From Acidobacteriota bacterium (GTDB taxonomy: Bacteria > Acidobacteriota > UBA890 > WLXD01), in NCBI GenBank assembly GCA_963666055.2, contig CAXWPH010000006.1:224001-288000 (forward strand): a stretch of 64,000 nt of DNA. Direction: 5' to 3'. The position numbers were made by a program, and so were the translations under genes. Numbering within the stretch: position 1 is the stretch's first letter; each line of letters starts with the position of its first letter. The notes beneath the pieces are model-generated. The model did not search any database. It saw only the letters and a program-made list of their open reading frames with translations, and was not told the origin of the DNA. Shown here one piece after another: positions 16,999-62,824 of this stretch.

Positions 16999-17082
16999 GC
17001 CCAAGTGGCGGAATTGGCAGACGCGCTAGGTTCAGGACCTAGTGGGGGCAACCCCGTGGAGGTTCAAGTCCTCTCTTGGGCA
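16999..17082 (+). tRNA. tRNA-Leu(CAG), island integration target
   Basis: GCCCAAG acceptor, GGCGGAATTGGCAGACGC D arm, CTAGG-TTCAGGA-CCTAG anticodon arm, long variable arm, GGTTCAAGTCC T arm. Confidence 0.95.
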
Positions 17083-17233
17083 CTTGATGTAACCTATTGA
17101 CAGGTAACGAGTTGCGGAAGGGAGCCGGCCGGCGCGGCCAGGTTCCTTTCGGCGTTTCAGGGCCAGAAAGTAACGAACAGGTAACGGGAGGCGCGTGTCC
17201 CGGCAGCGTAGCTCCGAACTGGAGCATCGCTCC

Positions 17234-19145: not shown

Positions 19146-19235
19146 GCGCCACCCCCGAACGTGCTGATCGTCGGCGTTGACACTCGGCCGTCCGCCGTAG
19201 CGAAGACTCGTAACGCCGTGCCGCGCGAGCGCTTA

Positions 19236-20918: not shown

Positions 20919-21258
20919 CTCTCTTCCTCCTTTAGATCAATGGGGATGGCGAGCGCTCGCGCTTGACTCGCCGTGTCTGAGATCCGCATTGGCGAACCCC
21001 CTTGGTTGACGGTGGCGCGCCGCGGATCGGCTAAACGCTTCCACGTGCATGGCTGCTACTCTGCCGGGAAGCTCGGGAAGCTCGGGAAGCGACAACCCTA
21101 CTCTTGGAGCCGGCTAGACAACACCCTTGTTCCCTCTCGCTTACGTGATCTCTGCCCTCGTGCTGCCCTCACGTTGGATCGCTGCGCTGGCCTGGATGTG
21201 AGTACCCGAGGCTTCGCAAGGCTCGCAGTCGATCCGCTCACCGCGCTACGGTTGCGCA

Positions 21259-26200: not shown

Positions 26201-28475
26201 CGAGACTAAGCTGCGTCTTGACGGAATTCGCCAGCGCGAACGCAGACTGTTGGGGGAGCTGGCGAGTCTGAAGGCATGGTCGCATTGCTTCGATCGAATG
26301 ACCGAACACGAGAGGCAGCATCTCGTCGCCTGGGCGCTCGCCACCAAGAATGTCGGCAAGGGAACGGGAAAGTACGCGCCGAAGCATCGGCGCGCGGCGC
26401 GCGCGAACATGAACGAATGCCGGGGTGCGATCCCAGCTTGGATCATGCCGCTCTATCGAGTCGCGGAGTCGATCACCCCGGGACGCGACAAGTTCGACGT
26501 GGCCATTATCGACGAGGCGAGCCAATCGGGTCCCGAGGCGCTCCTACTGACCTACCTGGCGGACAAACTGGTCGTAGTTGGCGACGACCGGCAGATTGCG
26601 CCGAACTTCATCGGTGTGAACAGGGCGGATGTCGATGATCTACGGGAGCGGTACATTCGCAAACTTCCGATGGCCAATCAGTACGGAGCTGAGAACAGTT
26701 TCTTCGAACTCGCCGACATCAGATATCCGGGCCGAATTCGACTTCGAGAGCACTACCGATGTATGCCGGAGATCATCCAGTTCTCCAACAACCTTTCATA
26801 CTCCAATCAACCGCTTGAGCCGCTTAGGCAATACGGCGCTGGCCGCCTTGAGCCCGTCGTCGCGAACGTCCACGTGGCCGATGGTTTTGCTCGAGGGCGG
26901 GGCTCATCCACAGTCAACCCGCGGGAAGCTGAGGCGCTGGTTCAGCGCATCGTCGAGTATTCCGCGTACCCCGATTACGACAACAAGACTTTCGGCGTAA
27001 TCAGTCTTCTGGGTTCTTCCCAAGCCAGATTGATCGAAGGGATCTTGTTCGACGAGCTCGGACCGGAGGAGATGACTCGCCGACAGATTGTCTGCGGTGA
27101 CGCCTACGCGTTCCAGGGCGACGAGCGCGACGTCATGTTCTTGAGCCTAGTGGCAGCGCCTGGCGAAGGGCGCAGAATTCACGCGCTCACGTCACGGATG
27201 TATGAACGTATATTCAACGTTGCCGCGAGTCGGGCTAGGGATCAGATGCTCCTCTTCCACACAGCCACTTTGAACGATTTGAACCCTAACTGCATGCGTC
27301 ACCGATTGCTCTCGTACTGTAGTCATCCCGGCCTGGAGCAACCAACCGTCGGCGGCCATGACGTTGAGGACCTGCATCGTCTTGCTTCTGCCGACGGCCG
27401 TGGTCAGCGGACACCGCCCGAGCCCTTCGACAGTTGGTTCGAGGTCGACGTTTTTCTTCGAATTGCGGACGCGGGCTTCCGTGTGTTGCCTCAGTACGCG
27501 GTGTCTGGCTATCGGATCGACATGGTCGTTGAGGGCATGGAACGCCGGCTGGCGGTGGAGTGCGACGGGGATGAGTGGCACGGCGCGGAGCGATACTTGG
27601 AAGACATGCAACGTCAGAGGCAACTTGAACGCTGCGGGTTCCCGTTTTGGAGGCTGCGCGGCAGCGCGTTCGAGTTGGACCCGGACAAGGCGATGAAGTC
27701 CCTATGGGAGGCGCTTGATCACCATGGGATCTCGCCGGGTCACGTTTCGGCAGAGGACGGAGATGAGGAAGCGGCGGCAGCAGTGCCAGAGATTCCAGAT
27801 TCGCCCCCTGACTTCGTGTTGAGGCCACCTTCTATAGCGGCAGACCTCGCTGAGCCAAAGCAGGCCCAACTGGTTTCACCGATTCCGATCAAGTCTCAGG
27901 CTCAAGCGGCAGCGCATCCGGCCGACGAAGAGCCGGCGGGACACCCCTTGCCGGTCGCGTCACGACAGGCGCAGTACGTACTCTGGGTAGAGTGGACCAT
28001 GCCGGATCCCCGTGTCGCTTCAGCCGCCGAACTGGCTGAAGGCATCGTCTCCGTTGTTGAAGCGGAAGGGCCGGTTCGCATACGCCGAGTCTTTCAACTG
28101 CTAACGAAGGCAGCAGGCTTGAGGCGTGTCAGGCGGCTTGTACGTGAGGGACTCGAACGCGGCCTGAACGAGGCGCTGCGAGAAGGCCTGGTCGAAGAAC
28201 ATCCGGATCCGCTCAGTTCCGGGCGGTTAGATGCGGTGTTGATACGCGAAGGCCGGCCAACGGTCATCGTGCGTCCAGCAGCCGGGCGCTCGTTTGCCGA
28301 GATCCCATCGACCGAACTGAAGACTGTAGTCCGGGAGATTCTTGCAGAGAATCCGGCGTTCGGAGATGAAGCGATCATGCGGGCCGCCATGGCCCACTAC
28401 GAGTTCAGACGGCTCACGGCCAACATGAAATCGAGGATGCTTGTTCTCCTCGACGGGCGCTGTTCAACTTCATGA
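23232..28475 (+). CDS. SF1 (UPF1-like) helicase with Vsr/MTES_1575-like nuclease and DUF3320-like C-terminus (Hhe-like)
   Basis: QGPPGTGKS, IIDEASQ, VGDDRQ, LREHYRC, FQGDERD, NVAASRAR; FDSWFE..RIDMV..AVECDG; C-terminal VVEAEGPV. True start may be slightly downstream. Confidence 0.8.
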   Translation: MPTASEDHMHEDSRGREQDDAVRKDAIALFKFLREFTALRSKTIRSIDQYDTVLWLSDVPREAGVACAAWEQSRETDLGDTWLEIMKPKLPKVPAPPGATEPWLDREQLRDSSLDLPELRSQISRRIEDGDGEPQYETLELEDHPEISAAWDRYIEEEWWPWREVDRQLRPVHECYSKLYAIHQRQQRLGEQYEAVLGLGLLRWRTPDSQEIRRHLIVAQTSVHFDPVSGTITVGPAGEGANLRLEQDMLEPSWRPDPDESRAIETQIMSIGDDGIWDGVGVRDALQAWVNATAAAGTYSSALNEPAGFSPDPVVHLSPALVLRKRTARSFLKAFDDVLTDLEEGAAVPFGVERYVTVAEEAEGDHQEDPSDAGRPAEIPPQLYFPLETNAQQSEIVERLRSNQGVLVQGPPGTGKSHTIVNLVCHLMAEGKRVLVTSHAPRALTVLRRYIAEKAPEIAPLAVVLLGNDRESLNAMERSVEGITQRHSSWDAAATERDIDRLEQQLSDTLGEAAECRERLRSIREAEIYQHQPMPGAYAGTLQRIARRLRQEEESFEWFEDRPPSSEQQPPLTSTEMERLLALARDPVVGQVRDRTWKAVDASRLRSAADFSGMVARARAAEKAVEETKDSRAHEGFAALRSTTTELRQDLSSELGDLVRRARGIERHIHGWAGVAVRDVLGDRDRAWQELLDVTKARIEALQGAARWADENPVSGLDETDLAATKADAAKLLGHLEGGGRWGFGPFRAGAVKDGMYLQKVRVAGKPCVDADTLRDLIKRMDFQDELDRARSMWLRYVAIDSALSGPSQIAELEDLCEPLEAALELLPAKRSAQTQVEAIRGLAQPVWHDIDALEGLRLAAGAVDAASGARIATEQIETYGAEVASLLPPAGEWDPESRRLLAAIDAQDADGYSEALATLGEHYDELSVLAEGDSLATRLAEGAPKLAASIKANPTSQEWSGAVGGLEAAWNWARTRRWLAERTDPSAEIETKLRLDGIRQRERRLLGELASLKAWSHCFDRMTEHERQHLVAWALATKNVGKGTGKYAPKHRRAARANMNECRGAIPAWIMPLYRVAESITPGRDKFDVAIIDEASQSGPEALLLTYLADKLVVVGDDRQIAPNFIGVNRADVDDLRERYIRKLPMANQYGAENSFFELADIRYPGRIRLREHYRCMPEIIQFSNNLSYSNQPLEPLRQYGAGRLEPVVANVHVADGFARGRGSSTVNPREAEALVQRIVEYSAYPDYDNKTFGVISLLGSSQARLIEGILFDELGPEEMTRRQIVCGDAYAFQGDERDVMFLSLVAAPGEGRRIHALTSRMYERIFNVAASRARDQMLLFHTATLNDLNPNCMRHRLLSYCSHPGLEQPTVGGHDVEDLHRLASADGRGQRTPPEPFDSWFEVDVFLRIADAGFRVLPQYAVSGYRIDMVVEGMERRLAVECDGDEWHGAERYLEDMQRQRQLERCGFPFWRLRGSAFELDPDKAMKSLWEALDHHGISPGHVSAEDGDEEAAAAVPEIPDSPPDFVLRPPSIAADLAEPKQAQLVSPIPIKSQAQAAAHPADEEPAGHPLPVASRQAQYVLWVEWTMPDPRVASAAELAEGIVSVVEAEGPVRIRRVFQLLTKAAGLRRVRRLVREGLERGLNEALREGLVEEHPDPLSSGRLDAVLIREGRPTVIVRPAAGRSFAEIPSTELKTVVREILAENPAFGDEAIMRAAMAHYEFRRLTANMKSRMLVLLDGRCSTS

Positions 28476-28709
28476 TCGATAGCGGTTCGGCGAACGGTCG
28501 TGAGCTCCCTGGGAATCCTCGGTACGTTCGTTGGTGTCGCGGTCGCGCTCCTGCGTTTCGATTCCACCGATATCCAAGGCAGCGTTCCGTTCCTATGAGC
28601 ACAGACAGCTCCGTTTCCACCCCGAGCTACTTCGCGTACAAGCGCCTGTGCGAAGCAGGAGATATCAAGTAGGGCGTGGGCCTGACTGAGCGCAAGAGGG
28701 ACGAACCTG

Positions 28710-31673
28710 GTGGGCAGCCTTCATCCAATCCATCGCCGCTACTACGCGGAGGACCTGGTCCGCCGTCGCCGCGCTGGCGAGGCCCGACGCTACGCAGCCT
28801 CTCAGCGTCAGGGCCGTATTGACCCGAACCCTCACCAGATTGACGCGGTCATGTTCGCGCTGCAACGGATCCCGGAGGGCGGCTGTATCCTGGCCGACGA
28901 GGTCGGCCTGGGCAAGACTATCGAGGCTGGACTGGTCATCGCCCAGCTGCTCGCCGAGAGCGCGGAACGGATTCTGATCATTCTGCCGCGGGCTCTGGTT
29001 GGCCAGTGGCAGGACGAGCTGTTCTCGTTGTTCGGGATCTCGGCGTTCGAGGCGTCGGAGCCGGGCACCGACACCGATGGGCCCGGGGTCTTCCTGGCCG
29101 GCCGCGAGTGGGCCGGCGGCCAGCGCGGCTCGGAGAAGCTCGGCTCAGGCCCCCCGTTCGATCTCTGCGTGATCGACGAGGCGCACGAACTGTTCGCATC
29201 AATCCACCGCCGGTTCGATGGCCTTGGCAGCTACCAGGAGGAGCACAAGGAGGCGCAAACCGCGCACCGGGTGCGCAAGCTACTGGGGCCGTCACCAGTT
29301 CTGCTTCTTACAGCAACGCCCATGCAGAACTCGCTGCTCGAGCTGTGGGGACTCGTTCAGTACGTCGAGCGTTCGGGCACACTACTCGGCCTTCGCCCCA
29401 CCTTCAGAAAGCTCTTCTGCGAGGACACTGCGGGGAAACGAATCATCCCCGAGCAATCGCCCGACCTGAGACGACGTCTCGCATCAGTGGTGCATCGAAC
29501 CCTGCGTCGCCAGGCTCAGGAGTTCCTGGAGAAGCCGTTCGTTGGTCGCAGCGCGCGCCTGTTCGAGTACAAGATGGAACCCGACGAGCGTTCGCTCTAC
29601 GACGACGTCACCGCCTACCTGCTCCGCCCGACCCTGCACGCATTCCGTGGCCGCTCGCGGCAGCTCCTCCTGATCGGTTTTCATCGCCGCATGGCCTCGT
29701 CCACGGCTGCTCTCGCCGCGAGCCTGCAGCAGGTCGCCAACCGCCTTCGCAAACTCGTACGCGGCCCGGAACAGGACGACGCCGCGGAGCTGAGCGCCGA
29801 CTTCCTCGCCGATCTCGAGGACGAGGACGACACGAGCCCCGCCGTGACCGAGGAGACCTCCCCCGCCCCCAAGCGCGCGGACGTTCGCAAAGAACTCGCA
29901 GAGGTCGAGGATTTCATCCGTCGGGCCCAGGATCTGCCCCACGACAGCAAGGCCCAGAGCCTGGTGACCGCCGTGGAGACCATCGGCAAGAGGGAGAGCG
30001 GCAGCCACAAAGTGGTCATCTTCACCGAGTCTCTGACGACCCAGAGTTACCTGCGCGACCTGCTAGTGGAGAAGGCCGGACTGCGCGAAGACGAGATCAC
30101 CCTCTTCTCTGGCGCCAACAACCACTCACGTGCCCGGGACGCCCTCGCCAAGTGGCAGGAAGAAATCGGCAACGGCCTCCCTCCCCATTCCCGGCCGAGC
30201 CCCAACATCGCCGTGCGCCTGGCGCTGGTGCACGAGTTCAGGACCCGCTCGCGCGTGTTCATCTCCACCGAAGCCGGCGCCAAGGGGCTAAACCTGCAGT
30301 TCTGCGACACCATCGTCAACTATGACCTGCCGTGGAACCCGCAGCGCATTGAGCAGCGCATCGGCCGCTGCCACCGCTACGGCCAGACCCGCGATGTCAC
30401 CGTCATCAACTTCCTGGCGAAGGACAACGAGGCTCAACGGCTCACCTTCGACATTCTCAGTCAGAAGCTCGAGCTCTTCGGCACAGTCCTGGGAATGTCC
30501 GACGAGGTTCTCCACGAGAGCAGCGAAGACGGCACCGCAGAGCTGGGCATGAGCCTGGGCCCCGACTTCGAAGCCCAGATCCGCCGCATCTGGGATCGCG
30601 CTCGCTCGGTGCAGGAGGTAGAGGTCGAGCTGCGCCGACTGCGAGACTCCGTCGATGAGCGCCGCCGTTCGCTCGAAGACGTGCGCGAGCACACGGTAGG
30701 CCTGATCGAGAGCCGTCTCGACGAGTCGGTGCGAGCCGTCTTCCGCCAGATTCGTGAGGAGCTCCCGGCGACGCTCGCCGAACTCGACAGCGACCTGGAG
30801 CGCGTCGCAACGGCCTACCTGGTGGCCCTCGGAGCGCAGCACACTGTCCACGCCGACAACGGCAAGCGCGTCATCGACGTGCCAGAGTCAGAAGTGCTCC
30901 CCGCGACCCTCGCCGAGGGCTTCCGTGTAGCACTAGGCCACTCCAGCTCTCTGGAGGAAATTGAGTCGCTCCACGGCCGGCACCCGCTGATCGAGGCCGC
31001 CCTTAGAGAATCGCGGCAAAGCGGCACCGGTGACTTCCGGCTTCGCTTCCACCTCGCCGACGACGGCTCCCCCGTCCTGAAGGCCCGCCGCGGCGCCCGC
31101 GGACGATTGGCACTCACCAAGGTCTCCTACTCCGGCTACGAGAGCGAGGACCGACTGGTGGTAACCGCGATCTTCGAAGACTCCGAGGTGCTCCGCCCTG
31201 CCGAGGCCGCCCGGGAGCTGCTCCGCCTCCCCTGCGAGGACGTCTCGGACATCGACCTCCCGTGCAAACTGACGAAGGACGACCTCGACGAGGTCGTTGA
31301 CGAGGAGATGTTCCTCGATCATTCGGACGCCGCCCGACGCGAGCAGGATCGCTTCGAGCGCGCCCTCGACCAGCTCAACCAGTTCATGGACGACCGCTCC
31401 CTTGTTCTCCGCCGCGAGTTGATAGACGTGGCCGCGGCCCTTGAGAAGGCCGAGACCACCCGCGACGGTGCCCTCGGGCCCGAGGCCCGACAGGCCGCGC
31501 AGGATCGCGTGCTGCGTCACGAGGAGCGAGTGCAGGCCATCGAGGCCGACCTCGAGAAGGTCGACTCGCGAGCCGACGCCGTGTACGAGAAGTGGCGCGA
31601 TCACGCCCACGCCCGCCGATACAAGCCGCCCGAGCCCGAGCGGCTCTTCAACGTCGAGTTCGTTCTCGAATGA
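28710..31673 (+). CDS. SNF2/RapA-like SF2 helicase with C-terminal coiled coil
   Basis: LADEVGLGKT, IDEAH, LTATPMQN, STEAGAKGLNLQ, YDLPWNPQRIEQRIGRCHRYGQ. Confidence 0.9.
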   Translation: MGSLHPIHRRYYAEDLVRRRRAGEARRYAASQRQGRIDPNPHQIDAVMFALQRIPEGGCILADEVGLGKTIEAGLVIAQLLAESAERILIILPRALVGQWQDELFSLFGISAFEASEPGTDTDGPGVFLAGREWAGGQRGSEKLGSGPPFDLCVIDEAHELFASIHRRFDGLGSYQEEHKEAQTAHRVRKLLGPSPVLLLTATPMQNSLLELWGLVQYVERSGTLLGLRPTFRKLFCEDTAGKRIIPEQSPDLRRRLASVVHRTLRRQAQEFLEKPFVGRSARLFEYKMEPDERSLYDDVTAYLLRPTLHAFRGRSRQLLLIGFHRRMASSTAALAASLQQVANRLRKLVRGPEQDDAAELSADFLADLEDEDDTSPAVTEETSPAPKRADVRKELAEVEDFIRRAQDLPHDSKAQSLVTAVETIGKRESGSHKVVIFTESLTTQSYLRDLLVEKAGLREDEITLFSGANNHSRARDALAKWQEEIGNGLPPHSRPSPNIAVRLALVHEFRTRSRVFISTEAGAKGLNLQFCDTIVNYDLPWNPQRIEQRIGRCHRYGQTRDVTVINFLAKDNEAQRLTFDILSQKLELFGTVLGMSDEVLHESSEDGTAELGMSLGPDFEAQIRRIWDRARSVQEVEVELRRLRDSVDERRRSLEDVREHTVGLIESRLDESVRAVFRQIREELPATLAELDSDLERVATAYLVALGAQHTVHADNGKRVIDVPESEVLPATLAEGFRVALGHSSSLEEIESLHGRHPLIEAALRESRQSGTGDFRLRFHLADDGSPVLKARRGARGRLALTKVSYSGYESEDRLVVTAIFEDSEVLRPAEAARELLRLPCEDVSDIDLPCKLTKDDLDEVVDEEMFLDHSDAARREQDRFERALDQLNQFMDDRSLVLRRELIDVAAALEKAETTRDGALGPEARQAAQDRVLRHEERVQAIEADLEKVDSRADAVYEKWRDHAHARRYKPPEPERLFNVEFVLE

Positions 31674-32821
31674 GCAAACCGGAGGCACCCGACGTGGCCT
31701 TTTCATTGCTGCACACCGCCGACTGGCATCTCGGACGCCGGTTCCCGAGGTTCCCGGAGGAGGACGAGCAGAAGCTCACGCGTGCTCGACGCGAGGTCGT
31801 GACCAAGATCCTCGACCTGGCTGAAAGCCGCCGCGTGGATGCCGTGCTGTGCGCCGGCGACCTATTCGATGAGTATGCCCCGGACTCGCAGTGGTGGAAG
31901 GCCGTGGTTGAGGACCTCGCCAGGCGTAAGTGGACCCGTCAGGTGGTCCTGCTCCCCGGCAACCACGATCCGCTCGTTTCCCGATCGGTCTACGAGCCGA
32001 GCCATGCTTTCCGCCGAGGACTGCCTCCGTTCGTGCACGTGGTCGATCGTCCGGACTTCGAGCTCGAGCTCGCCGATAACGTCGTGCTCTATGCGGTGCC
32101 TTGCACCTCTCACGCCGGGCAGAACGACCCGGCGTTGCAGCTTCCAGCCCGTGCGCCCGGCGACGAGCGCATCCGCATCGGCCTCGTTCACGGCCAGACC
32201 TTCGACATTGAGGGGCACCAGACGAATTTCCCCATCGCGCGTGACGCTGCGCAGCAACGCGGTCTCGATTACCTCGCCATCGGTGACACGCACGGCTTCC
32301 GCGACGTCCAACCCGATGCGCCGGTTCCCACTGTGTATCCGGGCGCGCCCGAGCCGGCCACGTTCGGGGAAACCGACGCCGGCCACGTTGCCCTGACCTT
32401 CTTCCCGCGCGATCGGCGCCGCCGGGCCATCGTCGAATCGCACCGGGTCGGCACGTGGCAGTGGAGCGAGCAGACCTGCAGCTCGATCGAGGAGCTGAGG
32501 GCGCTGAAGTCCGATGATTCTCTGCGCAAGTGCGTGCTGAAGTTGCAGATCGAGATGCGCCTGCCTATCACTGAGTACGACGAAGCCGGGGCGATCCTTA
32601 GCGAGCTGCAGGGCTCCCTCGCTGCGCATCCCCGTGTGGGCGTCCTGCTCGCCGACCGCACCGGGCTGCGCCTGGAGCCACCCGGGCAGAAGGACTTCCC
32701 CGACGACCTTCCCCCCGTCCTCAAGTCGACCATCGAGCGGCTGGTTGCCGCAGCCGACCAGGAACCTGAGCGCGCCGAGCGCGCCCTGCACCACCTCTTC
32801 CAGCTCGTGAAGGGACGGTAG
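31670..32821 (+). CDS. Mre11/SbcD (YhaO-like) metallophosphoesterase nuclease
   Basis: HTADWHLG, AGDLFD, PGNHD, VHG, LAIGDTH, YPGAPE; ATG overlaps the SNF2 stop (ATGA). Confidence 0.9.
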   Translation: MSKPEAPDVAFSLLHTADWHLGRRFPRFPEEDEQKLTRARREVVTKILDLAESRRVDAVLCAGDLFDEYAPDSQWWKAVVEDLARRKWTRQVVLLPGNHDPLVSRSVYEPSHAFRRGLPPFVHVVDRPDFELELADNVVLYAVPCTSHAGQNDPALQLPARAPGDERIRIGLVHGQTFDIEGHQTNFPIARDAAQQRGLDYLAIGDTHGFRDVQPDAPVPTVYPGAPEPATFGETDAGHVALTFFPRDRRRRAIVESHRVGTWQWSEQTCSSIEELRALKSDDSLRKCVLKLQIEMRLPITEYDEAGAILSELQGSLAAHPRVGVLLADRTGLRLEPPGQKDFPDDLPPVLKSTIERLVAAADQEPERAERALHHLFQLVKGR

Positions 32822-32824
32822 CCC

Positions 32825-35800
32825 GTGTGGTTGCGGCGTCTCGTGGTGCACTCGTTCGCCGGCATCAAGCACGCCGACATCAAGCTCGACCAGGGCCTGA
32901 ACGTCCTGTACGGTCCCAACGAGCTGGGCAAGTCGACGCTGGTGCAGGCCATTCGCGCGGCGTTACTGTTGCCCGACAGCTCCGCCGCCCATCGCGACCT
33001 CATCGACTGGCACGACGACCAGCCGCCGCGAGTGGAGCTGACCGTCGAGACGGATCGCCAGCGCATCTATCGCATCAAGAAGAGCTTTGGCTCGGGCGCC
33101 GACGGCTCGAGCCTCCTGGAGTTCTCCAAGGACGGCGAGAGCTTCGTCCTGGAGGCAAAGGGCCGGGATGTTGACGGGCAGGTGCGCGAGCTGCTCGAGT
33201 GGGGAATCGCGCAACCGGGAGGCGGCGGCGGCAAGCATGGGTGGCCCGAAGCCTTCCTCACCACGGCCCTCATCGGCACCCAGGACGAAGTGGAAGCCGT
33301 GCTCGAACGCGGCCTCGACGGCGATGCCAACGAGTCGGGAAAGCAACGGCTCACCCGAGCACTACAGGCTATGGCCGAGAGTCCCGAGTTCCGGCGGGTC
33401 CTCGCTGCCGCTCAGGTGAAGGTCGATGAGGCGTATACGCCCAAGGGAAGGCGGAAGCGGAGCAAGGGCTCGCCCTGGACCGAGATCCAGAGCCGCCTGA
33501 AACTCGCTCGGGATGAGCAGGACGCCGCGCGCAGGCTGGTGAACGACAGTCTCTCCGCAGGTGCAGGAGTCGAGGAGATCGCGGAGACGCTCGCAGGAGC
33601 GAGTACCCAGCAGGCAGAGGCAGAGGCGGCGAGCCAGCTGCTGCAGGTGGCATGTCGGCAGAACGAGGCCCGCACCGCCGCGGCACGCTTCCTGGCCGAC
33701 GCGGAGAAGACCCGCGATCGGGTCCAGGCCTACTACACGGCTGTCGAGGAAACCGGGGCCGTGCTCAAGACCGCAGAGGCCGCTCTGCACGACGCCAATG
33801 CCGCGACGGCAGCAGCCCAGACCGCGCTCGACACCGCCGAAGAGCAAGTCACTGCCGCGTCCAAGCACCTGGTGAAGCTCGAGAGCGGCAGCGCCGAGCA
33901 AGAACGGAAGATCCAGCGGCAGGAGATCGAGAAGAAACTGCTCGCTTTCGACGCGGCCAGGAAGGACGGCGAGCGAGAACTCGAGCTTGCGAACCTGGCG
34001 GCTGTGGCGCACCGGAAGGCCGACGAGCTGGCGAGCGGGGTCGAGGCGAGCGAGAAGCGGCTGAACGACGCCGGCGATCTCCTGCAACGGGCCGAGACCC
34101 AGACTACTGGCGACCAGGTCGCCTTGGCCAAGCTTGAACAACTGGAGCTCGCCGATACTTTGGCAGCCGCCATCGCGGATCTGACCACGGCGCGCGCGGA
34201 CACCGAGGCCGTTGCCAAGCTTCGCCACGAGGCGGCGGCAAGGAGACAGGAGGCCCAGGTCATCCGATCGCGAATCGAGGCGCTGGCTGTCCCCGACGAG
34301 AAGGCCCTGAGCGAGCTGGGGCAGCAACTTCATTCGCTACAGATCGCCGAGGGTAAACTTCAGGTTGGCCTCTCCGTGCGCATTGCGCCTAAGAAACCTC
34401 TGGACATGTCCGTTGCCGCAGACTCGGCCAAGCCGATCGCGCACCATCTGGCAGACGAGAAGACATTCGAGGCCGAAGGACACCTCATAGTCGACCTGGC
34501 AGGAATCGCCGAGGTGGAGGTCACGGGTGGTAGCGCGGCCCTACGTCAGGAAGCGCAGGAGATGCGGCAGCGCTGGAACCACGAGGTCACGCTCATCCTT
34601 AGTGCTGCCAAGGTCGAGTCATTCGAACAGCTCCTGGACGCCTCCGAGCGAGCGACGAAAGAACTCGGGCAAGCCGCCGCCCTGGATGCCGAGGCTGACC
34701 AGGCAGAAGCCCGGGCGCGAGGAGCCGGCGATGCCGAGACTCGCCTCGCCGTAGCAGAGCGCTCCGAACGAGAAGCGCGCGTACAGCTCGACGCGCAGTT
34801 GACGGCTGGCGACTCCTTCGAGCGCCTGCTTGAGGAGGCGCTCGAGGCCGGCGACCCCGAAGCCGCCGAGAAGGAGAGACAGGCCCTAGAGCAGAACATC
34901 GCGAAGCGAAACGACCAGGCCGGTGCCCTCCGAACACAGGTAGCACGGGACGAGAGCACCCTCGAGTCCGCTAACCGCGAACTCGAAGCGCAACGTCGAG
35001 ACTGCAAAGCAGCCGATGCGAGACTAAGCGGTCCATTTCAGGACGTTCTCGCCCGCGCCCAGGGCACACTCGCCAAGATCACGTCGGACCGGACCTCGCA
35101 CGAGGCGGAGCTGAAGAAGCTTGGCACGAGCGCGAGCGCGACAATCGATGCAGCTCGCGAGAAGCAAGAGGTCGCCCAAACTCGGGCCGACCAGGCAAGG
35201 GAGCTCCTCGAGCAGAAGACCGACGCGGCATCGAAGGCTCAGTCGGCGGTCACAAGGTCCGCCGCACAACTCGACGAGCGCAAGACAAGAGCCGCCGACG
35301 AAGACCTGCCAGCCGCAGAGCGCCTCGTAGAAGAGCTACGCAAGGCGCTGAAGAAGCTGCCTCGACCGACGGTAGATGTCGACGACGAGCAACTCGCGGC
35401 CGCACACGAGCTAGTGAAGCGAACCACCAACGCCGTCCGCGATCTCGAGAGCGAGCGGAGCAAACGCGAGGGCGCCCTGGAGACGGTGGGCGGCCAGTAC
35501 ATCCAGGACCGACTCGACCGAGCGGAAGAAGCCGTCGAGTCGATCAGCGATCTCGAACACCTGACCGAAATCGAGTACTCCTCATGGCAGCTCCTCCTTG
35601 AAACGCTGAGGATCGCCGAGAGCGAAGACGCTGTTCACCTCGGGGATGCGGTGGTGAGGCCCATCGAGGAACGAGTCGCCGCTCTCACCCAGGGGCGCTA
35701 CGACACCGTCTCCGTAGGCCCTCATCTCGACGACATCAGCCTCACCCTGGCTGGAGCAGCGCGCGACCAGACCTCGCTGTCCATCGGCACCCGCGACCAG

Positions 35801-36064
35801 CTCGCCACTCTACTCCGCCTCACCATCGCCGAGACGCTCGAGACCGCCGTAATCCTCGACGACCAACTGGTGCACAGCGACATCGGCCGCATGAACCGTC
35901 TCGCAGAGTTGATCTACCGCTGCGCAGACAAGTCACAGATTCTCGTGTTCACGTGCCGGCGGGAAGAATACGAGGTCGAGAACTACACCGCCAAAGCGAA
36001 CTGGGTAGACCTTAGGAGAGTGGTTGAACGCAGCGGGGCTGACGAGATAGCAGGAGAAGTGTAG
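32825..36064 (+). CDS. Rad50/SbcC (YhaN-like) ABC ATPase with long coiled coil
   Basis: GPNELGKS, ~700-aa coiled coil, signature LSIGTRDQ, Walker B/D-loop ILDDQLVHSD; starts 3 bp after the nuclease stop. Confidence 0.88.
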   Translation: MWLRRLVVHSFAGIKHADIKLDQGLNVLYGPNELGKSTLVQAIRAALLLPDSSAAHRDLIDWHDDQPPRVELTVETDRQRIYRIKKSFGSGADGSSLLEFSKDGESFVLEAKGRDVDGQVRELLEWGIAQPGGGGGKHGWPEAFLTTALIGTQDEVEAVLERGLDGDANESGKQRLTRALQAMAESPEFRRVLAAAQVKVDEAYTPKGRRKRSKGSPWTEIQSRLKLARDEQDAARRLVNDSLSAGAGVEEIAETLAGASTQQAEAEAASQLLQVACRQNEARTAAARFLADAEKTRDRVQAYYTAVEETGAVLKTAEAALHDANAATAAAQTALDTAEEQVTAASKHLVKLESGSAEQERKIQRQEIEKKLLAFDAARKDGERELELANLAAVAHRKADELASGVEASEKRLNDAGDLLQRAETQTTGDQVALAKLEQLELADTLAAAIADLTTARADTEAVAKLRHEAAARRQEAQVIRSRIEALAVPDEKALSELGQQLHSLQIAEGKLQVGLSVRIAPKKPLDMSVAADSAKPIAHHLADEKTFEAEGHLIVDLAGIAEVEVTGGSAALRQEAQEMRQRWNHEVTLILSAAKVESFEQLLDASERATKELGQAAALDAEADQAEARARGAGDAETRLAVAERSEREARVQLDAQLTAGDSFERLLEEALEAGDPEAAEKERQALEQNIAKRNDQAGALRTQVARDESTLESANRELEAQRRDCKAADARLSGPFQDVLARAQGTLAKITSDRTSHEAELKKLGTSASATIDAAREKQEVAQTRADQARELLEQKTDAASKAQSAVTRSAAQLDERKTRAADEDLPAAERLVEELRKALKKLPRPTVDVDDEQLAAAHELVKRTTNAVRDLESERSKREGALETVGGQYIQDRLDRAEEAVESISDLEHLTEIEYSSWQLLLETLRIAESEDAVHLGDAVVRPIEERVAALTQGRYDTVSVGPHLDDISLTLAGAARDQTSLSIGTRDQLATLLRLTIAETLETAVILDDQLVHSDIGRMNRLAELIYRCADKSQILVFTCRREEYEVENYTAKANWVDLRRVVERSGADEIAGEV

Positions 36065-36313
36065 CTGTGAGGCCTCTGAGGAAGCCGATCACAACGTCAG
36101 GCCCCCCGTCACGGCACGACTTTCGAATCTGTGGGTCCGGTGATTCCGATGGCGTGCGATTCACTGCCATGGAGAGTTGGTCGACGGGCCGCGTCACTAG
36201 TGGTGGTGATCGGCCACGAAGCAGAACTGGACCGGGGCCGCCGTCTTGTCCGCCGATCGCGATCGAGGGAGGGAATTCGGGATGAGGATTCGGCGGGCGC
36301 CTGCGAGGCTTCT

Positions 36314-38431
36314 ATGGGCGTAGCGATAACGCTGGTCTTCCTAGCGATCGTGATCGCTTTGGCCTTTCGGAACTCAGGCCGTGCCGCGCGTACCGCCCCC
36401 ACCGCTAGCACGCGGCGATCACCCCCCAAACGATCGAGGCCCCAGCAGGGAGGCTCTGCCCGCAACGCTTGGCTGTCCGGCGACCTGCAGCAGATGATTG
36501 GGGCGCTGGCCGCTAAAGCGAAGTTGGTGGATCGCCACTTCCTGCTGATGACGATCGTCCAGCAGACGTATCGTCAGCGCGCCGACCCGACGATGGCAGA
36601 CAAGTGCGCGGAAGTCGCCCAGCTTCACCTGGATGAGTTTGATCAGATCAAACCCGCGCTCAAACGTGACATGGGGTTCCTGCCGCATGTTCCGACGTTT
36701 CAGCACTATGCGACGCTCCTCACAGAGCGTGGTGACTTCGAACGTGCGATGAATGTGTGTGAGGCAGCGATTGGGCATGGGCTCGACGATGGCACAAAGG
36801 GCGGCTACAGAGGCCGCATCGAGCGCATTAAGAAGATGCGCGCCAAAGCGAAGCTTGCTAGTGGCGCCGCTGCTGAGACATCTGGCACGCCGACCACGCG
36901 CGCAAAGCAGGTGGTTCCCTCAACCGACTTGCCGCAGATCGTTGAAACGTTGGCGACATCGCATCAGAAACGAACGCGGGTCCAAACCGCACGCGTACTC
37001 GATCTGGAAGGTGTGCCGTTTGTCGGGCTGCCACGGGCCCCAGCTCGGTGGGAGGAGCGCGATACAGCCAAGGCTCAGAGGGAAGACGATGGTGCCGAGG
37101 ACTTCTTCGAGCTCCTGGGCCAGCCTGGCTGGGAGCTCTTGGAGCCCGAGAAGTTGCCCATGACCGAGCGACCGGACCCCGCATACCGGCGTCATTTCTC
37201 GGCTCGATCGGGCACATTCCTGGTGGATGACCTGGGCCGCGCGAAGGCACATTCGGGCGCGCCGTGTTCGGTGATGAGCTTCGGGGCTCAGGGCGAACCC
37301 TTGGCCGAACGAGCCCTAGCATGGGACCTCTATCGTTTGCAGGTGAATCCTTTAGGCGCTGGGCTCGCCGGAATCTCCAGGAACCACGTCCTGCACTGTT
37401 ACGACGAGCGGCTGACGACGCTCGCGGCAGTACCTCTCGCAGAGACACCTGAAGTTCGTGCGGCGAAGTCACGCCTGGAGATCCCGGACCTAGAACTCCA
37501 TAGGCATATTCGCACGGGCGCGCTTCGGCCAGATGGGAAGGCGTACTTGTTCTCGGTTGTGGACGAGGCGTTCGCGGTGGGCATAGAAGGCGATCCGTTA
37601 TTCGGCGTGCGGATGCCTCACCAGGATGGCTGGGAGCAAGTCGGGTCGATCACTTCGCGCTCTGGTTCGAGCACCGAACTCGATCAGGCGATGAGCGCGC
37701 TCGGGCTGGCCTATCCGTTTGACTCCCAAGACGTCAAAGGGCGATATCGCCAGCTGGTCAAGGAATGGCACCCCGACAAGAATCCGGGCAGAGAGCAGGA
37801 GGCGGCGTCAGAGTTCCGGAAAGTCGTGTCAGCTGCGGAACTCCTGTCTGGTCTCGACATGTCCGAATTCGCTGCCCCCGAAGAACGAGCCGTGTACCGC
37901 AAGACGCTTGGTGAACGAGGAGAAATCAGCGCTGCAGGCGCCTCGATATCGTTCGAAATGTCGATCACCGGCGACGCGCGATCGGCAGCCGATTGGATCT
38001 ACGCCGCTTCCTTCAGCGCCTCGGGTGGAGCATTTGTGGCCGGGTACTCCGGGAAGATCGTCGAACTGGATCAGACGGGACAGCCCACGCGCCTTTTTGC
38101 TACCTCGAGTGTGCCGCGAAGAATCGCCGACACCGGAGACTATCTCTACTTCCTCACTGATACTCGCCTCTATGTGATTCGCGGCACGCGCCTGTGCCGT
38201 GTAGTTGACGTGTTTGACAACGGCGAACTCGTGGTGGGCGAAACAGGTTTCGGCCTCCTGGGTAAGAAGGCGTTCCGCTGGTACTCAGAGGACGGACGTT
38301 TCGCGGGCGGAATCCGAACGAAACACCCGCTGCGCCGGATCTATCCGACTGCACAAGGCTGGCGAGCCGAGACGCGACAGCACCGAGCAGAATTGCGGAA
38401 CGTGCCGGCGTGGCGGGAACAAACGGCGTGA
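36314..38431 (+). CDS. Membrane-anchored protein with TPR-like, beta-rich and DnaJ (J) domains
   Basis: N-terminal TM MGVAITLVFLAIVIALAF; helical FQHYATLLTERGDFERAMNVCEAAI; J-domain VKGRYRQLVKEWHPDKN...EFRKV. Confidence 0.7.
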   Translation: MGVAITLVFLAIVIALAFRNSGRAARTAPTASTRRSPPKRSRPQQGGSARNAWLSGDLQQMIGALAAKAKLVDRHFLLMTIVQQTYRQRADPTMADKCAEVAQLHLDEFDQIKPALKRDMGFLPHVPTFQHYATLLTERGDFERAMNVCEAAIGHGLDDGTKGGYRGRIERIKKMRAKAKLASGAAAETSGTPTTRAKQVVPSTDLPQIVETLATSHQKRTRVQTARVLDLEGVPFVGLPRAPARWEERDTAKAQREDDGAEDFFELLGQPGWELLEPEKLPMTERPDPAYRRHFSARSGTFLVDDLGRAKAHSGAPCSVMSFGAQGEPLAERALAWDLYRLQVNPLGAGLAGISRNHVLHCYDERLTTLAAVPLAETPEVRAAKSRLEIPDLELHRHIRTGALRPDGKAYLFSVVDEAFAVGIEGDPLFGVRMPHQDGWEQVGSITSRSGSSTELDQAMSALGLAYPFDSQDVKGRYRQLVKEWHPDKNPGREQEAASEFRKVVSAAELLSGLDMSEFAAPEERAVYRKTLGERGEISAAGASISFEMSITGDARSAADWIYAASFSASGGAFVAGYSGKIVELDQTGQPTRLFATSSVPRRIADTGDYLYFLTDTRLYVIRGTRLCRVVDVFDNGELVVGETGFGLLGKKAFRWYSEDGRFAGGIRTKHPLRRIYPTAQGWRAETRQHRAELRNVPAWREQTA

Positions 38432-40898: not shown

Positions 40899-41948
40899 AT
40901 GCCGCTTATCCGCGTTGGCGCAGCTGGGGCCGAGTTTCTAGAAGCAGAGCAATATAAGAGCGAGACAGAGCTTGAGAATGTTCTCGCCGATCATGTGGAC
41001 CTGCTGCGGGAGGGCGACGACCCGAATCTCGCGATGGTTACACGTCAGTTGACACTACCGGGTTCTGGTATTGCCGACCTGGTGCTCGTGGACGCCGCAG
41101 GTGTTCCGATAGTTGTCGAGGTCAAGCTCGGGCGGAACCCACAATCTCGGCGCGAGGTCATCGCTCAGGTCTTCGACTATGCCTCAGCCCTGACCGATTG
41201 GACCGTCGACGAGCTGGATGAGCAGACAGACGGCATGACCGAGGCCGCGCTCCGCTCGCTGCTCGACGAAGACGAAAGTACCTTCAGGGCTAGATGGAGG
41301 GCTGTAGGCACAAATCTGCGTGCCGGGATGGTCCGCGTCATCGTGGCCGTGGATGAACAGACCGAAGAGCTTTCTCGGGTCGTTTCCTTCATCAACGAAC
41401 ATAGCGACTTGGATGTGAGGCTCGTTGTGGTCGAGAAGTATAGGGATCCGAACGGCGACGCCGTCTTCTCGTCGACTACGCCGATTCTGAGCGATGATCA
41501 GATCGCATCCGCTCGGTCCGGCAGTTCTGCTCGCCGACTAGCTGCACGCGAGGGGTTCCAGGCAGTTCTCGATGCATATGATGCGCTTGAGTACCGGCCA
41601 CTGGAGCTTTCCGGACGGGCCCGAAACTACCGCCCGCTCAGGCACCCTGATTGGCCGAAGGCGGTGCACTACGAGTTCCTAGACGCCCGTGGCAATACAA
41701 ACCCGGAGATCCACCTAGAGAGCGACAAGGTCGCAGTCATTGCGCCCGTCTTGAAGACGCTGAGTAACGAGTTACAGGCACAGTTTCCGAACGCGACGTG
41801 CGAGTTCAGTCCCAAGTGGAGTCGGGGCAGAGGACGCCTCCGAATCATCCACGATCAGGAAGCTACGGCTGATCTGATTGCCGAGAACATGGTTCGCCTC
41901 ATCGAGGCAACGAGGGATCGAATCGGCGAAGCGCTACTCGCTCTATAG
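40899..41948 (+). CDS. NucS/EndoMS-like PD-(D/E)xK nuclease domain protein
   Basis: SETELE, ADLVLVD...VVEVKLGRNPQSRREVIAQVFDYAS. Confidence 0.65.
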   Translation: MPLIRVGAAGAEFLEAEQYKSETELENVLADHVDLLREGDDPNLAMVTRQLTLPGSGIADLVLVDAAGVPIVVEVKLGRNPQSRREVIAQVFDYASALTDWTVDELDEQTDGMTEAALRSLLDEDESTFRARWRAVGTNLRAGMVRVIVAVDEQTEELSRVVSFINEHSDLDVRLVVVEKYRDPNGDAVFSSTTPILSDDQIASARSGSSARRLAAREGFQAVLDAYDALEYRPLELSGRARNYRPLRHPDWPKAVHYEFLDARGNTNPEIHLESDKVAVIAPVLKTLSNELQAQFPNATCEFSPKWSRGRGRLRIIHDQEATADLIAENMVRLIEATRDRIGEALLAL

Positions 41949-57075: not shown

Positions 57076-57107
57076 GTCGTCCTCCCCTCCTTGGGTTTCC
57101 CCGGCCG

Positions 57108-57654: not shown

Positions 57655-57659
57655 GTCGC

Positions 57660-60416: not shown

Positions 60417-61439
60417 ATGGACCCTCAGGACTTCCACGAGAGCCGCCGGCGATCGTTCGCGAGCCTATGGCCGGTCGCAGATGGCTATCGCATCGAAGGG
60501 GGCTACCTTCTCCCGCTCGGCGAGGGAAGCCCGGTACGGCCTATCCACCACGACGGCCAGGACGCGTATCTGCCCATGGCGCGCCCAGAACTCCCGCGCG
60601 AGCTAGCGAAAGCGGCCACGGGTGACGATGACGACATCCTCGCTTTCACGCGGCGCTACGGCCTTCTGGGCTACATGCAGGCATGGTCGTTTCCCGTGGA
60701 GGAGGCCGGCATCACGTGGATTTTCGGCGAGGACAGCGAGCAGGCGGCGCCGGGATTAGCTCCAGGGGACCCGGTTGCCTCGTTCGTCGGGCATGCCAAA
60801 ACAGTGCAACTCGTGCTCAATCTCATTGGCGCCCTTGGCGCGGGCGATGGGGCCGTCCGCGAACATGTCGAGCTCCTCAAGGTTGTCCGGGGCGAGCACG
60901 GCGGCATCCGTGATGAGGTGATCGGCTATGACGCCGCGCAACGCGGGTACTTGCGACCGGTCCAGTGCGATATGTCTGTGGGGGGCGAGCCACGACACGT
61001 TGCCCTCCGCATCATCGAGCACGTGCTCAACGCGAACCTCCCGGGCATATCGCGGCAGCTCAGCGTCCAGCCCCAAGAGGACGGCGAGCTCGGCTTCGAG
61101 TCGTTGTTCGAACCCCACAACCTGGCGGACTGCGTCTACTGGCACCTAGCGGATGCCGCGGCCGGCGGGTGGGTCCGCAGGTGCGCCGACCCGCGGTGCC
61201 AGGCGTTCTTTGTGGCTCAAAGCGCCCGCGTGCAGTACTGCCCCCCGCCGAGGGGTTACAGGGGTGTGAGCCCGTGCATGAACCGGACCAAGGTCCGCCG
61301 ACACCACAAGCACAAAGAGGAGGCAAGGGAGCGCCACGAGGCCGGCGAGTCGATCAAAGCTATCGGCGAGGCCCTTGGGCGCGCTACCGACACCGTCTGC
61401 CGCTGGGTCGAGGACGCTGATAACGAGGGAGGGAAGTGA
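60417..61439 (+). CDS. ABATE/CGNR zinc-finger-like protein with C-terminal HTH
   Basis: RRCADPRCQAFF..YC..PCMNR; GESIKAIGEALGRATDTVCRWV; coupled to the integrase; start uncertain. Confidence 0.6.
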   Translation: MDPQDFHESRRRSFASLWPVADGYRIEGGYLLPLGEGSPVRPIHHDGQDAYLPMARPELPRELAKAATGDDDDILAFTRRYGLLGYMQAWSFPVEEAGITWIFGEDSEQAAPGLAPGDPVASFVGHAKTVQLVLNLIGALGAGDGAVREHVELLKVVRGEHGGIRDEVIGYDAAQRGYLRPVQCDMSVGGEPRHVALRIIEHVLNANLPGISRQLSVQPQEDGELGFESLFEPHNLADCVYWHLADAAAGGWVRRCADPRCQAFFVAQSARVQYCPPPRGYRGVSPCMNRTKVRRHHKHKEEARERHEAGESIKAIGEALGRATDTVCRWVEDADNEGGK

Positions 61440-62602
61440 TGGCCAGCATCCAGAGGTACGTCCTGAAAGACGGCAAGACGCCGCGCTGGGCGGCCATGTG
61501 GCGCGATCAGGCAGGCGAACAACACAAGAAGGTCTTCAAGCGCCGTATGGATGCCGACCGCTGGATCACGAAGGTGGCAGCCGAGGTCCAGGACGGCATG
61601 TGGAGGGACACACAGCCGGCCCTGATGCGAGAGCTCTTCAAGGCGTGGAACCGGGACCTCGACACGCGCGTGAAGATGGGCGAGGTCAAGATGTCCACGG
61701 CCGACACCTACCGCTGCAACGTCGGGAAGCACTTCGTGCCCGCGTTCGGAGATTACCGATCGGATCGGCTCACCGCCTCCGTCATGGCGGAGTGGCGCTC
61801 CGAGATGGCGGACAAGATCGAAGCCGGCGAGATGGCGCCGAAGAGCTTCAACAACCTGTTCAACCTGCTGCACTCGCTCCTGGAGTGGGCGCGACACCCA
61901 GCCCGAGGCTATATGAGGCACGATCCCTTGATCGGCCAGAAGCGGCTCACGATCCGACGTACCGAGGCCAGTTACCTCGAGGACGCCGAGATCGCCGCGC
62001 TGCTCGGCGCCGGGGCTGACGATGTGGAAGCCGACGCCCTCATCCACGTGGCTCTATTCGCTGGCCTGCGGCGCGGCGAGGTCTTTGGCCTGCATTGGGG
62101 CGACGTCGAGGTCAACGGCGATCGCGGCGGGCGGCTATGGGTGCGCCGCTCGCTGTACAAGGGCGAGGTGACTACACCGAAAACCGCGAACTCCGAGCGC
62201 ACCGTGGATGTACCCCGGCTCGTGCTCGACGCGCTGGCCCGGCACCGGGAGGCGTGCCCGCCCGTGGAAGGCGACTTCGTGTTCCGGACCAGCACCGGCG
62301 CTCCAATCGACCCCAACAGCTGGTACGGTCGAACGTTCTGCGAGATTCGGAAACGCGCCGCCCTTCCAGACAGTGTGGGGCTACACTCGCTGCGACACAC
62401 GTACGCGTCGCTCTTGATTCGCCAGGGCGAGAACCCGAAATACGTGTCCCGCCAGCTAGGACACTCCTCGACGTCGTTCACGATGGACGTGTACGGCCAC
62501 CTCTTCGAGACCACCAGCGCTCAGGCGATGGGGCGGCTTGACGGCGTGATCCGGAAGGCAAAGCAGAAGCGCTTTGAAGTCATCAAGGGCGGCACGGCCT
62601 AG
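61436..62602 (+). CDS. int: Tyrosine integrase
   Basis: GLRRGE, PKT, HSLRHTYAS, LGH, MDVYGH; N-terminal arm-binding-like domain. Confidence 0.95.
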   Translation: MMASIQRYVLKDGKTPRWAAMWRDQAGEQHKKVFKRRMDADRWITKVAAEVQDGMWRDTQPALMRELFKAWNRDLDTRVKMGEVKMSTADTYRCNVGKHFVPAFGDYRSDRLTASVMAEWRSEMADKIEAGEMAPKSFNNLFNLLHSLLEWARHPARGYMRHDPLIGQKRLTIRRTEASYLEDAEIAALLGAGADDVEADALIHVALFAGLRRGEVFGLHWGDVEVNGDRGGRLWVRRSLYKGEVTTPKTANSERTVDVPRLVLDALARHREACPPVEGDFVFRTSTGAPIDPNSWYGRTFCEIRKRAALPDSVGLHSLRHTYASLLIRQGENPKYVSRQLGHSSTSFTMDVYGHLFETTSAQAMGRLDGVIRKAKQKRFEVIKGGTA

Positions 62603-62766
62603 GCCAGCCAGTGGCGGTTTCGAGTAACGAGAAAGTAACGGGAGCAGCGGGAACGAGCGGTACTAGGCGGTTACACACGTAGAGCAGTCGAATCGTAAAC
62701 CACTGAAAACACTTGGTCTTTTGGTAGTTAGCGGGCCCAATCGGTAGCGAGCGGTAAATGCTAAAA

Positions 62767-62824
62767 TAGGTTCAGGACCTAGTGGGGGCAACCCCGTGGA
62801 GGTTCAAGTCCTCTCTTGGGCACT
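62767..62824 (+). repeat. attR: duplicated 3' part of tRNA-Leu
   Basis: Identical to 17027-17084. Confidence 0.92.

Follow-up and report, generated by a model that had tools for sequence, protein, structure and literature searches.

A mobile three-gene unit pairing a RapA-like SNF2 ATPase with a hookless Mre11-Rad50-like nuclease-ATPase pair: a candidate defense system in Acidobacteriota

The window in this report is a 64-kb stretch of contig CAXWPH010000006.1 from an Acidobacteriota bacterium, and its subject is a set of three open frames, here called the triad, that lie in the same direction on the forward strand. The first gene (28710..31673, +) encodes a RapA/DrmD_b-like SNF2 ATPase of 987 amino acids (aa), with a GTG start at 28710 that aligns with an ATG in two copies from the same genus. 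The second (31670..32821, +) encodes a 383-aa Mre11/SbcD-like metallophosphoesterase nuclease of the GDxH subtype, its ATG at 31670 lying within an ATGA overlap with the SNF2 gene. The third (32825..36064, +), a hookless Rad50/SbcC-like coiled-coil ABC ATPase of 1079 aa, starts with GTG at 32825 after a 3-bp gap. The frames, the overlap, and the gap are as described in the initial annotation of this DNA, made from the letters alone. Similar spacing recurs elsewhere: with starts picked automatically, and with copies from the same genome and genus and some frameshifted assemblies taken in, a spacing of -20 to +25 bases is seen between the SNF2 and nuclease genes at 36 of 48 loci and between the nuclease and ATPase genes at 33 of 37. 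Contigs from four DNA runs cover the triad, with no well-supported joint that skips it, and a scan for promoters and terminators gave no signal exceeding that of shuffled sequence. A few database proteins fuse the nuclease with the ATPase, or the SNF2 tail with the nuclease, with parts missing; these are probably frameshift artifacts and were not used as evidence.

From at least 601 candidates in a scan of GTDB genomes, the best 72 loci were taken; 48 are in the clade of SNF2 proteins that defines the triad and the other 24 in a sister clade. (Loci and genomes are given below as L and G numbers where they need to be told apart.) The 48 comprise 39 with a whole nuclease gene, 1 with the nuclease start cut, 5 on contigs that end within the SNF2 gene, and 3 broken SNF2 fragments that lack a nuclease, one of them half a gene between transposases. 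The nuclease lies downstream in 40 of the 41 loci that hold the SNF2 C terminus (39 whole, 1 cut by a contig end), and the ATPase is next in 38 of the 39 loci with a whole nuclease, the remaining one being a contig end; at L014, a 2.7-kb insertion separates the SNF2 gene from the nuclease gene. None of the 24 sister-clade loci has the nuclease. When the nuclease was taken as the starting point, the SNF2 gene was found upstream in eight of nine metagenome loci, and the ninth sequence begins inside the nuclease. Of 301 genomes drawn evenly from the phylum, 13 exceeded the threshold. Six of these have the core nuclease, each time together with both partners, and the other seven have more distant stand-alone pairs with no SNF2 gene within the stretches fetched. 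The 39 triad loci span eight named phyla, mostly Acidobacteriota (14), Pseudomonadota (10; NCBI labels), and Myxococcota (5), and a search by region, in which 7992 candidates were scored, returned 178 SNF2 clusters at 90% identity.

Trees of the SNF2 proteins and of the nucleases, built over 34 loci common to both, share 21 of 31 splits, and none of the 22 SNF2 splits whose support is at least 95 conflicts with the strong nuclease splits; this agreement speaks for co-inheritance, not for co-evolution. Together with the linkage in 40 of 41 loci, it establishes the triad as a conserved unit, as the operon first annotated would imply. Values of dN/dS measured against two same-genus copies are 0.11 to 0.27 per gene, indicating purifying selection; the nuclease of G002 has a frameshift near its end. 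Chance proximity and a fourth subunit were both ruled out, since outside the three genes no cluster of neighbors occurs in more than four triad loci. The same clustering gave no conserved fourth gene and no conserved methyltransferase, which agrees with the lack of a methyltransferase remarked on at the outset. An origin as a set of phage or plasmid genes found no support either: a scan of viral contigs with the nuclease confirmed no relative (4 pattern matches, 0 confirmed), a PLSDB search gave 334 records, all at <60% identity and 25 of them listed at 26-34%, and none of three records inspected has an SNF2 gene directly upstream of the nuclease.

The SNF2 protein matches the Pfam families SNF2-rel_dom and Helicase_C, giving two RecA lobes, and no nuclease domain was detected in it. 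Its motifs DEVGLGKT, DEAH, and QRIGRxHR are invariant or nearly so across 74 aligned rows. The profiles were those of PADLOC (2023) and NCBIfam (2026), used singly rather than as full system rules. The best curated family for the protein is the NCBIfam model DrmD_b, at 427.5 bits far under the cutoff of 950; the DrmD family model gives 239.3 bits against a cutoff of 610, and the PADLOC DrmD match has an E value of 3e-127. The AlphaFold2 model (predicted local distance difference test [pLDDT], 79.6) has RapA structures as its top Foldseek matches, aligned over the whole chain in approximately 1070 columns. Its C terminus is of the RapA type, a five-stranded sheet with two long helices inserted ahead of the last strand, and it includes a coiled-coil hairpin at about residues 856-952 of the model. 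A sheet with inserted helices has been described as the C-terminal domain of RapA and BrxHII (PMC12839542). The coiled-coil tail to which the initial annotation drew attention is indeed present, but it is not special: it is a family trait, because the C-terminal domain of RapA and BrxHII is alike, and the sister clade has a tail as well, which rules it out as a unique feature of the triad.

In a FastTree phylogeny, 36 triad SNF2 proteins and 21 sister proteins form the two sides of one branch, each with support of 99; the root is tentative because the outgroups are long. The sister clade (24 loci within L047-L072, e.g., L052, L055, and L065) comes from many phyla and lies beside type III restriction-modification (R-M) Mod and Res genes. 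A type III Mod cluster adjoins the sister SNF2 gene in 18 of 24 loci, and the 10 Mod and 5 Res genes tested near these SNF2 genes all match MTase_III or REase_III. The top PADLOC label of the sister proteins is DrmD, yet their recurring partner is type III R-M. The comparison with Zorya made at first does not carry over, as the nearest relatives of the triad SNF2 are DrmD_b-like proteins associated with type III R-M and not ZorD.

Canonical Mre11-Rad50 complexes have an Asp-Glu Walker B motif, a His-switch, and a nuclease motif V of the form GHxH. The triad nuclease matches Pfam Metallophos, with a score of 69.2 bits against TIGR00619, under the cutoff of 77.65. Residues D18, D64, N98, H99, H174, and H208 are found in all 42 aligned rows (42/42) and H20 is found in 41; motif V is GDxH, with the Asp in 41 of the 42. 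In the nuclease tree, the triad clusters with stand-alone GDxH pairs (support, 94), apart from a housekeeping GHxH clade. If the three deepest triad members (L046, L050, and L057) are included, support for monophyly is only 70, and since their branches are also long, a single origin is not established for them. The ATPase has the Walker A motif GPNELGKS, the signature LSxGT, the Walker B motif LDD, and the motif FTCR. Its Walker B is thus LDD rather than xDE, with D1013 in 104 of 105 rows, and the His-switch position is Arg in 74 of 105 rows and His in 27. The stand-alone and housekeeping hookless ATPases printed for comparison also have a DD Walker B, which marks it as a trait of the clade and not as decay. 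The catalytic motifs, taken to be intact at first, are so for the SNF2 protein and for the metal ligands of the nuclease, but the Walker B, the His-switch, and motif V all depart from the canonical forms.

The AlphaFold2 model of the ATPase (pLDDT, 84; predicted template modeling score, 0.43) has the Rad50 head 3qf7 as its best structural match (Z = 27.7; root mean square deviation, 6.1; 338 residues aligned). A further Rad50/SbcC head scores Z = 26.9, Escherichia coli SbcC scores Z = 23.5, and LmuB of Lamassu scores Z = 19.5; head matches dominate the whole-chain structure searches, and a match to AAA_27 is marginal (23 versus 22 bits). As first noticed, there is no CxxC zinc hook: none is seen at residues 200-900 in 105 ATPase rows (0/105) or anywhere in the ATPase of the window, and the same check finds CxxC in a canonical SbcC control (L108). 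A small all-beta domain, six-stranded in the model, is predicted at the apex of the coiled coil in place of the hook (34361..34528, +; ATPase residues ~513-568). A profile of this apex recovers deep triad members (E values of 1e-5 to 1e-19) and one stand-alone pair (G031), with no match to the plasmid or housekeeping ATPases tested. An Atlas search with residues 470-620 of the ATPase returned unnamed clusters only, with MksF and DUF3584 as leads at 0.80. Some triad ATPases (P0192, P0181, L012, and L021) have the same heads with longer coiled coils, for total lengths of 1280-1846 aa, and arm length is therefore free to vary.

A complex was predicted from four pieces, namely SNF2 residues 768-987, the nuclease, and the ATPase head split into its two halves, with our own alignments. 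The complex scored 0.72 (0.70-0.74 between runs), compared to 0.00 for the best of three controls, with contacts that agree in at least 77% and a partner pLDDT of 79; in calibration, the score mark was reached by 116 of 157 solved pairs and by 2 of 215 mismatched pairs. Every confident contact involves the nuclease (residues ~38-55 and 242-262) and, on the SNF2 side, the coiled coil (residues 861-905) or residues 963-974; the score is lost when the nuclease is swapped out. The SNF2 surface predicted to dock on the nuclease corresponds to residues 861-974 (31290..31631, +). This surface is slightly more conserved than the rest of its domain (0.58 versus 0.50), including among polar residues (0.60 versus 0.45). 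Within the core triad clade, conservation extends to F868, R970, and P974; the sister clade lacks these three residues as well as Y971, and few interface residues are retained by the deepest triad members (L046, L050, and L057). We know of no solved SNF2-Mre11 complex, so an origin of the predicted docking in remembered structures is unlikely. The model supports binding of the SNF2 protein to the nuclease through the coiled-coil tail, and the initial picture of a translocase-nuclease machine gains from it to the extent of a prediction.

The triad moves as a block. It is present in three of five genomes of the genus, at three different sites, and the only long stretch common to the 40 kb around the copies in G002 and G003 is 28682..36040 (+), a block of 7.35 kb with nucleotide identity of 90% to G002 and 94% to G003. 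In G002, some 60 bases separate the block from brxF-brxC downstream of it, beyond which comes brxHII, and the opposite flank holds an integrase. The G003 copy comes directly after brxA-brxB, between insertion sequence elements, and DrmD/DrmMI-like genes form a separate locus approximately 10 kb away. The adjoining BREX genes are in both cases outside the shared block.

Genes related to known defense systems are more frequent around the triad than in random windows. We scanned 204 open reading frames (ORFs) of at least 100 aa within 6 kb of the 33 triad loci with usable flanks, with PADLOC matches taken at E values of 1e-25 or below, and as a control 135 ORFs from 20 random 9-kb windows in 10 genomes of the phylum of the window. 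Matches were found for 36 of the 204 flanking ORFs versus 5 of the 135 control ORFs (Fisher P = 6e-5) and at 19 of 33 loci versus 5 of 20 windows (Fisher P = 0.026). When matches that we judged promiscuous were removed (kinases, UvrD, SWIM-type SNF2, cysteine desulfurase, Clp-type ATPase, ABC ATPase, and ankyrin), the counts were 16 of 33 loci versus 0 of 20 windows. The neighbors include BREX (L012, G002, and G003), type I and type III R-M (L050 and L034), Gabija (L024), Zorya (L019 and L045), and type III CRISPR (L025).

The nuclease-ATPase pair resembles SbcCD/Mre11-Rad50 in the order of a nuclease gene followed by a coiled-coil ABC ATPase gene, the Rad50/SbcC head fold, and the Mre11 metal-binding motifs; it differs in its apical beta-domain in place of a CxxC hook, its DD Walker B, its Arg at the His-switch, its GDxH motif V, its coupled SNF2 gene, and a nuclease score under the sbcD family cutoff. 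SbcE/SbcF (YhaN/YhaO) of Bacillus subtilis is similar in that it has no CxxC, a central apex domain, deviant ATPase motifs, and an SbcD-like partner (PMC2811018). There, yhaM lies downstream, the pair has a role in break repair and competence, and the part of the report covered mentions no SNF2 protein (PMC2811018). The genome of the window also has, at a distance, a second Mre11/Rad50-like pair of housekeeping type, and a nuclease of this kind occurs in 23 of 25 further genomes from the order; the gene sits among metabolic genes, and four loci of this pair that were scanned gave a generic AAA regulator as their sole PADLOC match. This GHxH pair of the host is probably the nearer equivalent of SbcE/SbcF, the B. 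subtilis sequences being outside our tree.

On the SNF2 side, the DrmD of DISARM and the SNF2 proteins of type III R-M are the nearest sequence family, with the sister clade and the same coiled-coil tail. The triad differs from DISARM in that its SNF2 protein scores under the DrmD and DrmD_b cutoffs and no DrmA, DrmB, DrmC, or DrmMI is conserved alongside; DrmMI, DrmB, and DrmC have no match in the 204 flanking ORFs, and the one match to a DrmA model is a neighboring SNF2 protein. Compared to the type III R-M loci, the Mod/Res partner is replaced by the Mre11/Rad50-like pair. Neighbor clustering found Mod/Res clusters in no triad locus; at L034, a ResIII-domain gene and an MTase_III fragment lie downstream. 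The RapA-like architecture is shared with BrxHII of BREX type 3, ArmA of ARMADA, and HmaA (PMC12839542), and HmaA is a case in which an SNF2 protein is used with a nuclease in defense (PMC11232893). In those systems the SNF2 protein is partnered by a methyltransferase or fused to a PD-(D/E)xK nuclease, whereas the triad has a separate Mre11-like protein and no methyltransferase. BrxC and PglX have no match in the 33 triad flanks, and PglZ and BrxD are found at L012 only.

Lamassu (LmuABC) also links a Rad50-like sensor with a non-canonical Walker B to an effector, and its LmuB is thought to detect DNA ends or hairpins (PMC10586767). LmuB is approximately 650 aa long and often hooked, compared to the 1079-aa ATPase of the triad, whose LmuB matches are weak (E values of 3e-10 or above) and lie mostly in the N-terminal Walker A region; neither LmuA nor LmuC is matched. 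JetA, JetB, and JetD of Wadjet (kleisin, KITE, and Toprim nuclease) have no match in the triad or its flanks. The early comparison with Lamassu and Wadjet does not extend to the identity of the ATPase, which is of the hookless Rad50/SbcE type and not LmuB or JetC. ZorD matches of the SNF2 protein are weak (E values of 3e-24 or above), and Zorya systems with their own ZorD are neighbors at 2 of 33 loci. In the literature searched, no published description of the triad was found; supplementary tables of defense predictions lay outside that scope and may hold it. The part covered of the main text of bioRxiv 2025.09.15.676423 does not mention SbcC, Rad50, or Mre11. No matching system is found in PADLOC, NCBIfam, or that literature, and the initial annotation had likewise named none; the parts are of known kinds, in a combination that appears unnamed.

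The reading that we favor, with slightly better than even confidence on the basis of this analysis, is that the triad is a methylation-independent, end-sensing nuclease-translocase defense against mobile DNA. By analogy with SbcCD/Mre11-Rad50, and for the recognition of ends or hairpins also with Lamassu (PMC10586767), the M2R2 head would bind ATP, close on a DNA end or hairpin, and position the nuclease, with the apical beta-domain taking the place of the zinc hook. The C-terminal coiled coil of the SNF2 protein is predicted to bind the outer face of the nuclease domain, and the SNF2 lobes would translocate on double-stranded DNA, either feeding the nuclease or stripping off RNA polymerase or end-capping proteins; the coupling would in this way convert an enzyme that trims ends locally into one that degrades incoming phage or plasmid DNA processively from its exposed or blocked ends. 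The non-canonical Walker B and His-switch suggest that the Rad50-like protein is a slow, ATP-gated sensor to which the SNF2 protein supplies power. With few ends on show, a circular chromosome would escape attack, and self DNA would need no methylation mark. More tentatively, and at somewhat less than even confidence, we propose an undescribed immune machine in which a RapA-like SNF2 protein left type III R-M and docked by its tail on a hookless Mre11-Rad50, sensing the shape of invader DNA (free, hairpin, or protein-blocked ends) rather than its sequence or methylation, and destroying it processively. A module swap within defense islands is the simplest reading of its origin, in a direction that we infer.

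Several points weigh against a defensive machine. No member of the triad family has been characterized, and the closest studied hookless pair, SbcE/SbcF, acts in break repair and competence (PMC2811018). The four-piece prediction with our own alignments differs from the set-up used in calibration, and nuclease residues at the interface show lower conservation than the remainder of the protein (0.49 versus 0.67, the remainder including the core and active site). The flank control came from the phylum of the window only, was not phylum matched, and was compared with related loci that are not independent. The defense-island enrichment proposed at first holds in the counts, but 14 of 33 triad loci have no PADLOC match within 6 kb, and many flanks are metabolic. 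Two further genomes, G188 and G197, have no such match either; their triads sit between two tRNA-synthetase genes at a site common to both, a placement consistent with stable retention by vertical descent. Of the overall reading given initially, the conserved three-part mobile unit with its enrichment in defense genes stands as observed, and the linkage of its parts into a machine stands as a prediction.

The same loci lacking defense neighbors are our reason for keeping an accessory role in DNA repair as the main rival reading. In it, an Mre11-Rad50 coupled to a motor would resect broken host DNA or unblock it, and islands would carry the machine because only certain niches make it useful. 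Archaeal Mre11-Rad50 works with the HerA-NurA translocase in a comparable logic. Such a role would suit the purifying selection on all genes, the retention at one core site in G188 and G197, single loci near ligD and gyrA, and the mending of breaks by SbcE/SbcF (PMC2811018). We nevertheless regard it as unlikely, if still worth serious weight, as the host lineage already has a housekeeping Mre11-like pair, no conserved repair gene lies alongside the triad, the sister clade of the SNF2 protein is tied to type III R-M, and the triad itself is rare (6 of 301), patchy in the genus, and differently placed in each of the three genomes there that carry it.

The variety of neighboring systems (BREX, type I and III R-M, Gabija, Zorya, and type III CRISPR) and the role of the sister SNF2 proteins as add-ons to type III R-M raise the further idea of a helper, which would degrade ends cut by restriction, BREX-like, or CRISPR nucleases or mend self-inflicted cuts. 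This seems improbable to us, since no single partner system recurs and roughly 40% of loci lack any such neighbor. Least credible, and very improbable in our estimate, is a transcription-linked function in which the SNF2 protein would, like RapA, clear away stalled RNA polymerase or R-loops, exposing a structure for the nuclease to cut, on host or phage DNA. The whole-chain architecture does match RapA, including RapA structures bound to RNA polymerase, yet the SNF2 protein starts near the helicase core without the N-terminal region of RapA (RapA matches begin at residue ~135-150), its tail is bound to the nuclease in the predicted complex, and the same architecture serves BrxHII in defense (PMC12839542).

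If the defensive reading is true, the Mre11-Rad50 core would itself be a dedicated bacterial immune nuclease, beyond the use of a Rad50-like sensor as in Lamassu. SNF2 ATPases assist Mre11-Rad50 in eukaryotic break processing, and the triad would represent a new way of coupling Mre11-Rad50 to a motor, a small three-protein model for assistance by SNF2 proteins, and a hook-free Rad50 apex open to study. Since the predicted interface names specific residues, the idea is directly testable. Under the repair reading too, the triad would be a motor-coupled bacterial end-resection machine of which no description was found in the literature searched, supplements being outside its scope.

Some hookless SbcCD-like pairs, mostly GDxH and with no coupled SNF2 gene, stand alone, often amid defense genes (L095, L109, L149, L150, L151, and L153). 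Type I R-M is near L095, L150 lies between BREX and SIR2-HerA, PDC-S06 and type III Mod are near L151, and a methyltransferase with Vsr is near L153; L109, on a Sphingopyxis plasmid, is accompanied by a type III R-M operon that includes a separate SNF2 gene. Pairs behind a WYL gene or PDC-S06 are also seen among these six loci, and L094, L096, L110, and L152 are not amid defense genes. This two-gene parent clade may itself be an unrecognized defense module.

The accessory region around the triad in the window begins at a tRNA-Leu(CAG) gene (16999..17083, +), its left edge; synteny with G002 and G004 stops at the 3' end of this gene, at about 17090. At the other side, a tyrosine integrase gene (61436-62602) is followed by 58 bp that repeat the tRNA-Leu 3' end exactly (62767-62824), the two together spanning 61436..62824 (+). 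The mobile island seen in the initial annotation is confirmed by this break in synteny and by the copy behind the integrase. A 4.3-kb unit that starts from the tRNA-Leu 3' end (17027-21345) is 100% identical to a stretch at another site in G002, and many copies of the tRNA-Leu end are scattered on contigs of G000; stacked, tRNA-targeted insertions are therefore suggested. The accessory region as a whole looks like such a stack.

Directly upstream of the triad, at 23232-28475, lies a gene for a 1747-aa superfamily 1 helicase (AAA_11/12) with an MTES_1575 nuclease domain and a weak DUF3320 match. It is PDC-S37-, ProA-, and Hhe-like, under the NCBIfam cutoffs, including that of ProA, and relatives of this AAA/MTES_1575 neighbor also flank the triad at L002, L008, and L023 (the window and three loci). 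Directly downstream, at 36131-38431, a 766-aa protein has a likely N-terminal membrane helix, a helical region, and a DnaJ domain (residues 523-573); its flanks are unannotated, it has no PADLOC match, and it is not conserved beside other triad copies. The early description of the triad as lying between defense-like genes holds only in part for these direct neighbors.

Other genes of note in the window are a 560-aa ORF at 21259-22941, apparently a join of an N-terminal nuclease-like domain and a weak DUF429 domain, and a 349-aa PDC-S11-like putative nuclease at 40899-41948 (PADLOC E value, 3e-17). The tyrosine integrase belongs to a satellite-like element, or one resembling a phage-inducible chromosomal island, at 53700-62824, which is closed by the attachment-site copy; it includes a gene for a DnaB-N-domain protein (58051-59748, -) and a terminase-like ORF with no specific Pfam match (54203-55684, -). 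Near the start of the window, a HerA/DUF87-like ATPase gene (439-2433, -) lies beside a tRNA-Met gene (2925-2999) in a stretch of low GC content (46%), which is probably the edge of a second island.

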